Assembly: GCA_951406725.2 (NCBI GenBank)
Contig: OX597833.1
Coordinates: 46,438,001 to 46,502,000 of the forward strand
Length of the DNA stretch: 64,000 nt
Reading direction: 5' to 3'
Source of the DNA: Octopus vulgaris
Taxonomy: Eukaryota
Part shown: positions 1 through 64,000 of the stretch, piece by piece
Numbering within the stretch: position 1 is the first letter of the stretch
Layout of the letters: each line of letters opens with the position of its first letter
The notes under the pieces: generated by a model
Database searches by the model: none
What the model was told of the DNA's origin: nothing
Seen by the model: the letters and a program-made list of their open reading frames with translations, nothing else
Made by a program: the position numbers and the translations under genes

Positions 1-692
1 TCATTAATAAATGATGACATTAAACGAGTTAAGGAAATAGATATACGAACGTTAAGGGAAGTCAACCGAAATACTAAACCAGACTTAAAAATACTCCCAT
101 ACATCGCTACACAAAACCCTAGAAACTACGAAGCCTTCAACATTTTCATCCAAAATCTACCCATCCTCACAAGAGTTAAAACAATGAACAAAATTTTAGG
201 CTCACACAAAATTATCAAAAGCAAAATGCAACCTAAATCATTGAAAAAAATATTAATCAGCGCACGACTATATCCATTAATAACAGAACCAAAAGTGAAA
301 AAATGTTGTCGACCGAACTGTGGGACATGCCCCCACCTTTTGGAGGGTTCAGAGTTCCGCTTTAAACAAGGTGAAATATGTAAGATTAAACCAAATTTCA
401 CCTGTGCCTCGGAAAATCTAATCTATGCTATTACATGCTTTGGGTGTGGTAATAATTATATTGGCCAATCAGGAATATCACTCTGTCGAAGAACCACTCT
501 CCACAAAGAACAAATCCGCCACCTACAATACAGACAGATACCGGTCAGTGAACACGTGCTTGAAATCTTAATCCTAATTTCCTAATTTTCCCCTTCTATC
601 AATGTTCACAGAACACCTCAGTACAACAAAGAATGAATAAAGAAGCAACTTTCATCAATAAATATCCTCCACAACTCAATATGAACACATAA
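1..692 (+). pseudogene. Penelope-like element ORF C-terminus (linker + GIY-YIG endonuclease), runs off window start, frameshifted near 560
   Basis: Frame +1 is open from 1 to 585: LPYIATQNP, CCRPNCGTCPH, FTCASENLIYAITCFGCGNNYIGQS, RRTTLHKEQI, VSEH. A shifted frame continues FPFYQC...RMNKEATFINKYPPQLN*. This is the PLE GIY-YIG layout with Cys/His motifs. Confidence 0.9.
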
Positions 693-880
693 CATAACAC
701 AGAACACTACTAACCTTTCAGTTAATACCACTAACTCCCATACATCCCATACACCATTCACATTACAGATCTATATCTACCCTAATTGTACCAAATCCAG
801 AACTACTTACCTCACTTACACATAATCTTTTTACTCAGGGACTAGTAGACCTGACACCGTTCAGTAATCGGTGTGCATTC

Positions 881-919
881 AAAGCAATTATTAGTAATAT
901 TACAAAACCGGTATGCTTT
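881..919 (+). ncRNA. Decayed type I hammerhead in the PLE 3' region
   Basis: AAAGCA-ATTATTA-GTAA-ta-TTAC-AAAAC-CG-GTA-TGCTTT. Stems I and II are intact. Core is mutated relative to CTGATGA and GAAAC. Confidence 0.6.
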
Positions 920-1131
920 TGAATCTCTTTAACAATTCACAATAATGACTTTTATTTCTTTTATTCCTACCTCAGTTCATCTAATTGTATATATATCTAT
1001 CGCTACTTTTCATAAAAGCCTTTACTTTTTTTTGATTTCCAATGTGCATTTTCGCTTATTTTTCTTCTTATTTTCCCCATACATTTCGACGTGTAGTTTC
1101 TATTTTCTTTTTGCAACATGCTTCTATTATA

Positions 1132-1326
1132 CATATATATATATAGATAGATATATATATATGTATGTATATAAAAATATCGATCTAAATATTTTATATA
1201 TATATATATATATATATATATATATATATATACATACATACATATATATATATATATATATATATATATATATATATATATATATATATATATATATATA
1301 TATATATATATATATATATATATATA
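1132..1326. repeat. (TA)n microsatellite at PLE 3' end (representative of dozens of TA/CA/TACA/GATA tracts)
   Basis: Direct reading. Confidence 0.95.
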
Positions 1327-2219
1327 ATGCACATAACAGACTCACATACAGTACTTCGAGTTTCCTGACAAGCTACGGGCATGAAGTTATCCGATTACCG
1401 ACCGATAATTAAAGCCAGGTCATCAGCTTTTGTTGGACACAACTATATATTCCCCCATTTCAATGATATTGAAATCTACTTTTCTTTTTACACACTTGCT
1501 TTAACGTTATCTGTGTTTCAGTACATACTTATGTATACAAACACGCGCACGCGCACACACACATGCACGCACATACACACACGGACACACACACACACAG
1601 GGTCTCGCAGGTGGACAAACAGATAGAAAAACGAGGAAGATAGCCACACAAGCACAAACACATGGAAAAGGTTAACCTCCTACGTACCACATTTCTCTCT
1701 CTCTTTCTCTCTTTCTCTCTCTCTCTCTCTCTCTCTCTCTCTCTCTCACACACACACACACACACACACACACACACACACACACATACAAATATACTCG
1801 TCTACAAAAACAAATTTAACGAAGCGTGGTTCCCCGTGTTCAGTGCGATACTCCAGCGTTTTTATTCACGTAAACACATATATAGTTCAAATGCCTCATT
1901 AGCACAACCGTAATAATTCACGCCTCTAAATAAGATATCATACATAATAGATGCTACATACACAAACATTTAAACAATGTAATAGGTTTAACGAAGCATA
2001 GCCATTGCACTGTCAAATCAGTCTCCTCGTCTAGTGCTTGATTAGTCACCGTCTTTCGGTTTCTATGTATTCTACCTATCTCTTCCTCTCTCTTTATATA
2101 CATATATATATACATATATATATATATATGTGTGTGTGTATATATAAAGATATAGATATAGATATCAATATATATATATATATATATATATATATATATA
2201 TAAATATATAGATATAGAT

Positions 2220-61128: not shown

Positions 61129-62389
61129 GATTATTATCATCATCATCATCATCATCATCATTATTATTATTATTATTATTATTATTATTATTATTATTAT
61201 TATTATTATTATTATCATCATCATCATCATTATTATTTTTATTATTATTTTATTATTATTAATATTATTATTATTATTATTATTATTATTATTATTATTA
61301 TTATTAATTATTATCATCATCATCATCATTATTATTATTATCATTTCGGTACACAATGACAGTAACGTTGAAACAGTTGCCAAAATCTGAAATGTGCCTC
61401 TTGACCCCATCACGTGTCACTGAAGTTTCTTTTTTGTTTTTTGTCTTTTTTTTATATATAGATTTTGTTTAATGTCGTTATTGTTCACACCATACCTTGT
61501 TCCCAGTGAAACTTGTCCTGTAGTTCCTCTTCCTTTCCTTCCTTTTTTTCCCTTTCTTTTTGTTTCTTTCCAATGTCTTCTCTTTGTTTTCTTGTTTTTT
61601 TTTTTCTTTTTTCGGAAATAAAGGGGAAAATATTTTCCCAAGATATCATTTTACTTATCATTGCTATCACTACCATAATTAACACTATAACTATCATCAG
61701 CAGCAGCAGCAGCAGCAGCAGCAGCAATAGCTGCACCATCATCATCATCATCATCATCATTGTTATCGTCCTTGTCATTGTTGTGGTTATCATCATCATC
61801 ATCATCATCATCATCGTCATCGTCGTCATCATTGCTCTGTGAATATACTACAATTGACAGCAACAGACAAGTAAGACATCACTTCAGTGACCTGTGTGTG
61901 TATGTGTATGTGTTGTGTATGTGTTATGTACGTGTTGTGTATGTATGTTGCGTGCGTGTATGTGTGTGTGTGTGCATGTATGTGTGTGTGTGTATGTTGG
62001 CAATGACATATCAGTCCATCTTCCATGTAAACTCCCACCTACACATATACAGTTTAACAAAAGAAGTCTCGGGCCACTGCACGGTCATTCATTCGACTTC
62101 CAGAAACAAGAGCTTATTCCCCTCAAATTAATACTCTAACCACCATAAAAAAAAAAGGGAAGGATACATTGGTTAATGTAGTTCTCAATACCATGTGTAC
62201 TTGATAAATTGCTAGAAGTAGCAGCTTATTCTCGCCTTCAAATCAACTCATTAACTATGATGAAAAGGGACGGATACGTAGTCACTGGGGATATTGCAGA
62301 CAGAGAAGGGCCTACAGTTCGTTTCAGATCTTATGTCGCGAGTGGAGCCAGGCTGCATGACATCTTTTACCAACCACATGGTTCCGGGT

Positions 62390-62724
62390 TCAGTCCCACT
62401 GCGTGGCACCTTGGGCTTGGGCAAATGTCTTCTACTATAGCTAGCCACACACACACACACACACACACACACACACACACACACACACATATATACATAT
62501 ATATATATATATACACACACATATATATATATATATATATATATATATATATATATACAATATATACGACGGGCTTCTTTCAGTCTACCAAATCCACTCA
62601 CAAGCCTTGGTCGGCGGCGAGGCTATATTAGAAGACACTCGCCCAAGGTACCGCGCAGTGGGGCTGAACCCCAGAACCATGTGGTTGGGAAGAAAGCTAC
62701 TTACCACACAGCCACCCCTACGCC
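62390..62724. mobile_element. Two convergent SINE family 2 heads separated by (CA)n/(TA)n
   Basis: Plus head 62390-62441, minus head 62566-62724. Confidence 0.8.
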
Positions 62725-63254
62725 TAGAATATAAGAATATACTACATAATGTAGTCCTAGATGCACTGTGTCTGATATAGCATGATCACGGCTAGAAAGT
62801 CTGTGATCATGTTTTTCCTATTGGATCTTACCTGAAACTAAACATCACCGCCAGCAGCAAGACTGGTGCCAAAGCAGTCGCTCAGTCTACAAGAAATAGC
62901 AGCCAAATTTTGATGACACCTCATTCTATTATCATAACAAAACCCCAAAAAAGTAGATTTTATAAAGGTACATTGTATCTGGGGGGTGGATGAAACAGAG
63001 ACAAATAGTGAAGGGTGGAGCGCCTTCAGCTCGATTGGAACCGACCTGGGAGAATATGTCAGGAACGAGACATGACACATACTGTATTACAAATTAGAAA
63101 TATCTTTTTATACACATACACACATACACACACACACACACACACACACACACATACATATATATATACATACGTGTGTGTATCTGCGTCTGTGTTTGTC
63201 TTCCCATAAATATATATAATGTGTGTGTGTGTGTGTGTGTGTGTGTACACGCGT

Positions 63255-63455
63255 GCCTTTGTGTCTGCGTTTGTCCCTCCATCACCGCTCTGATAACCGG
63301 TGTCCGTGTGTTTATGCCCCCACCCCCGTAACTTAGTGGTTCGGCAAAATTGTCCGATGGAATAAGTACTAGGCTTAATAGAAAAATTCTGGGGTCGATT
63401 TGTTCGACTAAAACCCTTCAAGGCAGTGCTCCAGTATGGCCACCAAAAGAATAAA
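63255..63455 (+). mobile_element. SINE family 2, 3' half
   Basis: Homology to other copies. Confidence 0.85.
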
Positions 63456-64000
63456 AAAAAGAAGGAATATATATATATATATATACACACACACACATAT
63501 ATATGTATATACATATATGTATGTATGTATATCAATTCTTTTTTAAATATAGGGTAAAAATTAAATATTAATTTTTTACCAGCGTTAGAAAAAGATGTCC
63601 GTAGACTGAAAATATTATTATATTATATTATATTATATTATATTATACTTCGGAGTACGAAAATGACAAATCATTTTTGAATTCTCTCAAATTGTCCTGT
63701 CACCCTTTAACTCCCATTTCTAGCGTGTTGGAAAACCACTTAGTGGCTTTCCCTTCGTGTATAACACAGCATAATTATATATACACACACACACACACAC
63801 ACACACACACACACACACACATATACATGCATGCTCTGGTGACAGGCATAAGCTGTTTTACCGCAGCGAAGTCACGCTCGGTTAAGAGAGCCGTGGTTAC
63901 TCATGCCTTTTATCCGCGCCTGGTTGAATTTCTTCACTTTGACATTCGGAGCTCAAACAGAAATCACATCGCATCTATACATTTCGGTGATCGGATCCCA

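Follow-up and report, generated by a model that had tools for sequence, protein, structure and literature searches.

Minimal hammerhead ribozymes (HHRs) of metazoan PLEs are type I and have an additional base separating positions 9 and 10.1; their 15.2-16.2 and loop 3 sequences are palindromic, and a U3-A8 variant occurs (Cervera and De la Pena 2014, PMC4209133). They occur as multiple families per genome, mostly as single motifs, with opposite-strand pairs 100-700 bp apart. The EN+ PLEs Neptune and Nematis (Craig et al. 2021, PMC8557442) have a CX2-5CxxC linker before the C-terminal GIY-YIG domain, favor (TA)n targets, and leave partial tandems and inverted truncated copies. Non-LTR retrozymes (Cervera and De la Pena 2020, PMC7229834; bioRxiv 10.64898/2026.07.22.740005) are noncoding units of ~360 bp of PLE origin with a type-I HHR and a partial tandem layout, and a retrozyme has been taken to be active when it has two HHRs in head-to-tail tandem (Li et al., bioRxiv 10.64898/2026.07.22.740005). 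In green anole Poseidon (Frangieh et al. 2024, PMC11167929), the target is AT-rich and the tail is accounted for by two RT start sites.

Many of these features recur in a 64-kb stretch of the Octopus vulgaris genome, here called the window, in which about 15 small hammerhead motifs were recognized. It departs from the 2014 census in having one family fixed for U6 and in its far higher apparent density, 9 matches per 64 kb against ~2,000-9,000 per genome, figures obtained with different descriptors. The name "Octopus" is absent from a supplement file of that census (PMC4209133), and our literature search found no study of cephalopod hammerheads. On the sequence evidence, we put the probability at roughly 0.87 that the motifs are type-I hammerheads on short repeats, likely 5'-truncated PLE ends and non-autonomous derivatives that PLE proteins likely inserted into AT-rich (TA)n. 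The initial annotation had proposed a guild of PLEs and ribozyme parasites; its PLE origin, several families, short noncoding and likely non-autonomous forms, and TA targeting are retained here, while the proposed TA extension and host effect are not.

That annotation had listed about 17 HHR-like motifs and a weak one at 28764, 18 positions in all. Scans of the 64-kb window with a type-I HHR descriptor gave 6 matches at the strict setting, 9 at the medium (three-stem) setting, and 11 at the loose setting, where shuffles averaged 0.03, 0.23, and 0.98; at none of the three did any of 100 local dinucleotide shuffles come up to the real count. The reversed window gave 0 matches at the strict and medium settings. 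Similar motif counts in shuffled sequence, which the annotation had named as a result that would speak against it, were therefore not seen in the window. The loosest setting, with one core deviation allowed, was widened only once the sites had been seen. It gave 14 matches against ~2.8 in shuffles, a count equaled by 0 of 200 shuffles at either of two block sizes, and its margin is smaller because the reversed window yields 7.

With the core YUGANRA ... GAAA ... UH and stems I and II, the loosest descriptor passed 12 of the 18 listed sites, its other two matches being the unlisted 8330 and 57501. Five further listed positions rest on homology or structure. Homology makes 11243 and 12147 family members, the former with a broken stem I and the latter with G12A; 28764 is stronger than it had been rated because its core is canonical, its stem I is 6 bp long, and its predicted fold is a three-way junction; 41835 and 41886 each have a stem I of merely 2 bp. 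The remaining listed position, 881, was matched by no descriptor scan at any setting and is unconfirmed. Since 25650/26067 and 41835/41886 are one inverted insertion each, the 18 positions correspond to 16 events. Fully canonical cores are present at three of them (2321, 28764, and 55913). Loop 3, considered together with 15.2-16.2, was palindromic in 10 of the 14 real matches to the loosest descriptor and in 93 of 446 shuffled ones, a symmetry that would permit dimerization, and the unpaired base between A9 and 10.1 is found in all eight sequences of alignment A1 and is missing at 38458 and 55913. Folded as monomers, the bare motifs had no advantage over shuffles (z -0.15 to -1.9). An Rfam scan returned no hammerhead among the best 150 of 468 matches, which were nearly all microRNA models on microsatellites.

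PLE coding sequence lies at the start of the window. Positions 1 to 690 (plus strand) hold the 3' portion of a PLE ORF of autonomous type with a CX4CxxC linker plus a GIY-YIG endonuclease at its C terminus; in translation, its frame changes near 560-570. Its homologues bear RVT_1 (PF00078) and GIY-YIG (PF01541), with a top identity of 62%. The linker conforms to the CX2-5CxxC feature common to Neptune and Nematis, and the RT core falls outside the window. The 3' UTR of this copy (691 to 1125, plus strand) finishes at a TA array and contains 881, at best a decayed HHR relic; the HHR in this sole ORF-linked UTR is unrecognizable. Translation and tblastn revealed a second, broken PLE endonuclease fragment at 7438 to 7664 (minus strand), and tblastn placed PLE protein in the window solely there and at 1 to 683. 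Within the window, no sequence match links the short families to the autonomous PLE ORF or pLTR; for families A and B, "non-autonomous" and "truncated end" are therefore indistinguishable.

Repeats were identified by self-BLAST with microsatellites masked. Those bearing HHRs fall into at least eight families, which agrees with the at least six claimed earlier. Families A and B are solo copies of 150-200 nt, in which 22 of 34 HHR columns were invariant, compared to 11 of 125 remaining columns; element boundaries in this and in the TA-contact analysis were set by hand, partly from TA runs. A sequence-only model of the two families found no additional member without the motif in the window. Family A has U6 cores at 3217 to 3365 (plus strand, predicted site 3269) and 41480 to 41675 (minus strand, predicted site 41574) and a decayed HHR with C4, U6, and G12A at 12057 to 12257 (minus strand), all with TA on both sides; a further U6 copy at 42773 to 42976 (minus strand, predicted site 42869) has (CA)n at its 3' end and TA at its 5' end. 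Family B comprises 11176 to 11370 (plus strand, C4 core, broken stem I), 43039 to 43230 (minus strand, C4 core, predicted site 43145, TA on both sides), and 60011 to 60190 (minus strand, TA at the 3' end), whose core is canonical except for G at position 17. A related element at 2202 to 2394 (minus strand) has the canonical core CUGAUGA, a predicted cleavage site at 2324, and TA on both sides.

Other solo elements include one with a C4 core at 8647 to 8984 (plus strand), with a stem II region of ~77 nt, a 5-bp stem I, and a predicted site at 8934, and one with a U3-A8 and C4 core at 59615 to 59836 (minus strand), with a 9-bp stem II, a palindromic loop 3, a predicted site at 59691, and TA on both sides. 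The HHR at 55913 to 55957 (plus strand) has a canonical core, a GUC triplet, a predicted site at 55951, and no TA nearby; an assignment to type III was dropped in favor of type I, given its 6-bp stem I. A previously unlisted and uncertain candidate at 8248 to 8334 (minus strand) has a canonical core and a long stem II, and its fold is no better than shuffles (z -0.15). Pairing of a downstream GAGYG block with stem II was considered and discarded; by eye, it showed no covariation across 2321, family A, and 55913.

Family C consists of two subfamilies, 70-72% identical, each folding into a long rod built around its HHR (z -6.95 and -6.33); 5 of 49 rod pairs are changed on both sides, in an alignment of only two independent sequences. 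In the insertion at 25434 to 26281, a 360-bp unit forms a minus-strand partial tandem that is joined to an inverted truncated copy. The arms of this insertion are 98-99% identical, it has a 46-nt tail at one end alone and TA at both outer ends, and it carries two U3-A8 HHRs (predicted sites 25656 and 26105). Another partial tandem of the 360-bp unit (38198 to 38672, plus strand), whose HHR has a U3.G8 pair and a predicted site at 38496, landed at a short TA run and split a palindromic host repeat of ~155 bp (38081 to 38710), MITE-like by our reading. At 40323 to 40590, a 3' fragment of family C that lacks an HHR shows inverted arms, a one-sided tail, and an ~11-bp flanking direct repeat in an AT-rich, non-microsatellite target. 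The inverted pair of 274 bp at 41740 to 42053 has a 40-nt tail at one end and TA at both outer ends, and it bears two HHR-like motifs, both weak and with U3-A8. One-sided tails thus occur on three inverted insertions and measure 40-46 nt, against 30-40 bp for the optional tail of Neptune and Nematis (PMC8557442). A last partial tandem (28347 to 28934, plus strand) contains ~97-bp direct repeats 487 bp apart and a canonical-core HHR with a palindromic 8-nt loop 3, a 6-bp stem I, and TA on both sides.

The chances seem evenly balanced that family C, and perhaps the repeat at 28347 to 28934, are rolling-circle non-LTR retrozymes, that is, self-cleaving circular RNAs using PLE proteins. The 360-bp unit appears as a partial tandem at two loci, mussel retrozyme repeats measure 350-390 bp, and the rod fold is stable. 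In three runs, the contig depth summed across the HHR bin also exceeded that of the flanks by thousands of times, a value that is not a copy number. However, no locus in the window has two HHRs in head-to-tail tandem, nor at least two units in tandem that each include a complete HHR; the partial tandems have one HHR per strand, and families A and B, as solo copies, also differ from the retrozymes of PMC7229834. The retrozyme reading refines the PLE explanation and does not replace it.

The second alternative concerns the TA arrays. The initial annotation had placed nearly all motifs with the 3' end of the element at (TA)n and suggested that the elements may extend these microsatellites. The association itself was borne out: (TA)≥4 occurs within 150 nt downstream of 13 of the 18 sites and upstream of 12, with a background of 0.19 per side. 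For (TA)≥6 there is a mild 3' lean (11 of 18 downstream and 7 of 18 upstream; background, 0.12). At the descriptor-found loci, TA lies within 200 nt at 7 of 8 on either side (background, 0.25), compared to 11 of 39 and 13 of 39 on the two sides of SINE-like pieces. The exceptions are 42866, with its 3' end at (CA)n, and 55913. Because TA flanks both sides, we rejected 3' polarity in favor of insertion into TA; the apparent 3' orientation is mostly a by-product of location within TA arrays.

Extension would mean that the PLE reverse transcriptase, a relative of telomerase, adds TA units on insertion and so builds microsatellites. HHR elements do adjoin 22 of 95 TA arrays, containing 1,170 of 3,506 TA bases, and these arrays have a median of 32 bp against 14 bp for the others (Mann-Whitney p 0.005). 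However, the observed median is below the 59.6 bp expected from length-weighted targeting alone, in a test weakened by the splitting of arrays on insertion. The likely empty site of 38198 to 38672, found in joined form in two other runs, retains (TA)4, which corresponds to a gain of ~4 bp; the copy at 40323 has no microsatellite, and 73 of the 95 arrays adjoin no HHR element. We therefore regard extension as very unlikely. The arrays are probably targets that owe their length to replication slippage. Our search of the literature on PLEs and microsatellite expansion found nothing beyond a general review.

It is very unlikely that sense-strand copies cleave host pre-mRNA, an effect that had also been suggested for this DNA. 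Such cleavage would be favored by the three fully canonical cores, but among 179 frames scanned there was no host exon or host protein family, the sole significant protein-family match being a retroelement RT. The listed motifs show no strand bias in the window, with 9 on each strand, and the majority have a variant core or would need a dimer partner. Lone minimal HHRs did not cleave in the 2014 study (PMC4209133), and the anole HHR required its protein (PMC11167929). Chance matches within AT-rich repetitive DNA, which might account for 881, 57501, and perhaps 8330 and are in keeping with the shuffled and reversed-window matches to the loosest descriptor, have a negligible likelihood as a general explanation and are already refuted for most sites by the strict and medium counts, the empty reversed window at those settings, and the HHR motif being the best-conserved portion of its repeat.

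We favor the PLE reading because motif counts are far above shuffles, loop 3 is palindromic, the HHR columns are conserved, and the motif features agree with the 2014 consensus. Further reasons are the family C rod fold, the one-sided tails at three inverted insertions, which agree with PMC8557442 and PMC11167929, the UTR of the PLE ORF remnant adjoining TA, and TA within 200 nt at 7/8 loci per side. What is observed is at least eight families with a hammerhead core and palindromic loop 3, together with a remnant of a C-terminal-type PLE endonuclease. Judging from published PLE biochemistry, borrowed in part from Poseidon, a different PLE clade (PMC11167929), the GIY-YIG domain would nick AT-rich DNA, where the RT would prime. 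The RT would have two alternative start sites within the 3' part of the RNA, giving tailed or tailless ends, and incomplete or template-switching cDNA synthesis could explain why copies are truncated to 150-200 nt or occur as partial tandems and inverted pairs. In master copies, the ribozyme, acting as a dimer or aided by protein, may process tandem transcripts, and most single copies would be inert.

Earlier publications already describe U3-A8 cores, an additional base following A9, a palindromic loop 3, targeting of (TA)n, and derivatives that are non-autonomous. What remains is a ribozyme count that is possibly very high and a family in which U6 is fixed. Should the window be typical, the genome would contain several hundred thousand hammerheads, above any census we consulted, and family A would have spread with U in place of the conserved A6 and a freely variable N7, its fold and conserved downstream block serving as a handle for PLE proteins and not as a cutter; we put this forward tentatively and think it rather unlikely. 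A literature search for A6U hammerheads found nothing relevant, and the work of Lunse et al. on PLE hammerhead variants may already report U6. The findings mostly leave existing knowledge unchanged and have modest value as a census. Many 150-200-nt repeats between TA runs could be classed by their hammerhead motif, and natural material for asking whether spread of the element requires cleavage by PLE hammerheads is available in the U6 family and in the young copy of family C.

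The control for the type-I hammerhead ribozyme (HHR) descriptor was a set of dinucleotide shuffles with the microsatellites left in place (n = 100). The descriptor matched 6, 9, and 11 times at its strict, medium, and loose settings, against shuffle means of 0.03, 0.23, and 0.98 and reversed-window counts of 0, 0, and 3, and at none of these settings did any of the 100 shuffles reach the real count. Descriptor matches far exceed what shuffled sequence yields. A fourth setting, in which stem I was not required, gave 13 matches against 1.24. The loosest setting, with loop 3 and position 17 relaxed only after the sites had been inspected, gave 14 against about 2.8 in shuffles and 7 in the reversed window; 12 of these are among the 18 positions first listed, and the other two, at 8330 and 57501, may be chance matches. 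Three further listed positions stood on other grounds, 11243 and 12147 as damaged copies of clear families and 28764 by its canonical core, with a stem I of 6 bp and an 8-nt palindrome, but stem I is weak at 41835 and 41886, and 881 was passed by no descriptor scan. Core and triplet are fully canonical only at 2321, 28764, and 55913; all other motifs deviate by U3-A8 or U3.G8, C4, G17, or U6. A 179-bp unit occurs twice at 16814-17173, and both copies contain a weak hammerhead-like match in which stem I is absent. Close upstream of the 8330 and 8834 motifs, a short inverted repeat (8429-8467 and 8658-8697) brackets a long TA/TG array.

The claim of at least six sequence families held. Family A (3238, 12147, 41571, and 42866), family B (11243, 43141, and 60108), and the 2321 element form one group of elements of 150 to 200 nt, to which a model built on sequence only added no member in the window. 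The predicted cleavage site lies 95 to 123 nt from the downstream TA in 7/8 of them. The HHR is their best-conserved part, with 22/34 invariant columns versus 11/125 in the rest, in counts where columns are not independent and copies were chosen by their motif. Stem I covaries between families A and B, and U6 is present in all four family A copies, each with a different N7. Families A and B also carry a conserved block, YYYGAGYR followed after 4 to 7 nt by TAATA, 15 to 25 nt past the predicted cleavage site (3286, 11297, 12133, 41557, 42846, 43121, and 60091); this pattern, built from these same copies, has 7 matches versus 0.24 in shuffles. The block may serve as a promoter element or as a site of protein binding, and a similar CTGAGCG lies downstream of the unrelated 55913 motif. 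Family C has a 360-bp unit and comprises 25650, 26067, 38458, and an HHR-less piece at 40323. In both of its subfamilies the predicted fold is a long rod capped by the HHR (z of about -6 to -7), with two-sided changes at 5/49 pairs between what are only two independent sequences. Five more motif families are found at 8834, 28764, 41835/41886, 55913, and 59687.

The window has an A+T content of 62%, about 14.5 kb of simple repeats, and 91 runs of at least six TA units. (TA)≥4 occurs within 150 nt downstream of 13/18 sites and upstream of 12/18 (background, 0.19), and longer TA runs at 11/18 and 7/18 (background, 0.12). Among descriptor-found loci, with the 25650/26067 pair taken as one locus, TA lies within 200 nt at 7/8 on each side (background, 0.25; P = 0.0004 each). 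SINE-like controls, from two families of 39 and 11 stretches identified by masked self-comparison, have TA on the two sides in 11 and 13 of 39 and in 1 and 1 of 11. The TA association of HHR loci is therefore specific and two-sided; the proposal that the HHR 3' end in particular sits at (TA)n stood as to the association but not as to the side.

A second source of TA runs is a SINE-like repeat group with a TA/TG microsatellite between two conserved halves (50795-51242, 58661-59056, 20860-21281, 54651-55054, and 52050-52497), pieces of which are touched by 12/95 TA arrays. Palindromic elements of 140 to 190 bp, MITE-like or inverted insertions, occur at 27958-28125, 47032-47223, 41192-41334, and 38081-38710, and some adjoin TA. 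A 140-bp repeat pair (21403-21543 and 24208-24348) lies beside short AC/TA runs, and a search of it for a hammerhead found none. At 39092-39750 and 4637-5011, a 184-bp unit bearing a motif that we take to be tRNA box-B-like is repeated head to tail. The 60108 element abuts the edge of a GC-richer stretch (60200-60900), whose plus-strand frames presumably resemble the end of a LINE ORF and gave no Pfam match in frame scans.

Translation of 1-690 gives the C-terminal part of a Penelope-like element (PLE) protein that includes both a GIY-YIG domain and a CX4CxxC linker. RT and/or GIY-YIG families are present in each of its six longer homologs (top identity, 62%). A second PLE fragment lies at 7438-7664. 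PLE insertions have been described as partial tandems or inverted copies with tails, with (TA)n as preferred targets (Craig 2021, PMC8557442), and these forms are present here. At 25434-26281, a partial tandem is combined with a truncated copy in inverse orientation, and one end bears a 46-nt tail. The inverted pair at 41740-42053 likewise bears a tail, of 40 nt, at one end only, and 40323-40590 shows this inverted pattern with a one-sided tail again. Such a tail is reported to mark two RT start sites; the enzyme nicks AT-rich DNA, and HHR cleavage depends on protein and is dispensable for insertion in vitro (Frangieh 2024, PMC11167929).

The suggestion that elements extend TA arrays found no support. 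Arrays touching elements have a median of 32 bp versus 14 bp for others, but this 32 bp falls below the 59.6 bp predicted by length-weighted targeting. Contigs from runs X4 and X7 match the single-copy left flank up to 38196, with a further 35 letters beyond it, and a joint linking 38195 to 38675 omits 479 bases. These observations are consistent with an empty site carrying (TA)4 and would put the gain at about 4 bp, for one locus of one family. The intervening letters at this joint are "not known," further joints lie close by, and, the host palindrome being repetitive, it may derive from another copy.

An effect on host pre-mRNA was likewise not borne out. Pfam scans of 37 frames (from 169 of at least 90 amino acids, one scanned twice) and 142 frames from the set of shorter nonrepeat frames found no host protein family, the only significant match being an RT fragment (RVT_1, E = 1.6e-8) at 18719-19291. 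Its 3' part is likely 19766-20006, which has an opposite-orientation copy at 24773-25058. The motif strands are balanced (9 and 9), and the window may lie inside a long intron.

The pattern is genuine, and known PLE biology very probably accounts for it. Cervera 2014 (PMC4209133) already described the extra base, the palindrome, and U3-A8, as well as low activity and solo motifs derived from truncated PLEs, and changes at position 6 and U4C reduce HHR activity (Perreault 2011). Animal retrozymes are described as derived from PLEs (Li et al., bioRxiv 10.64898/2026.07.22.740005). Fifteen hand-delimited stretches, 4,731 bp in total, make up 7.4% of the window, against 6.83% PLEs in the Octopus vulgaris genome (Bonar 2026), so the PLE load is ordinary for octopus. 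HHR motif totals exceed 6,000 in a coral and reach 120,000 in axolotl (Cervera 2020, PMC7229834). What may go beyond known PLE biology is the size of the HHR census and the U6 family.
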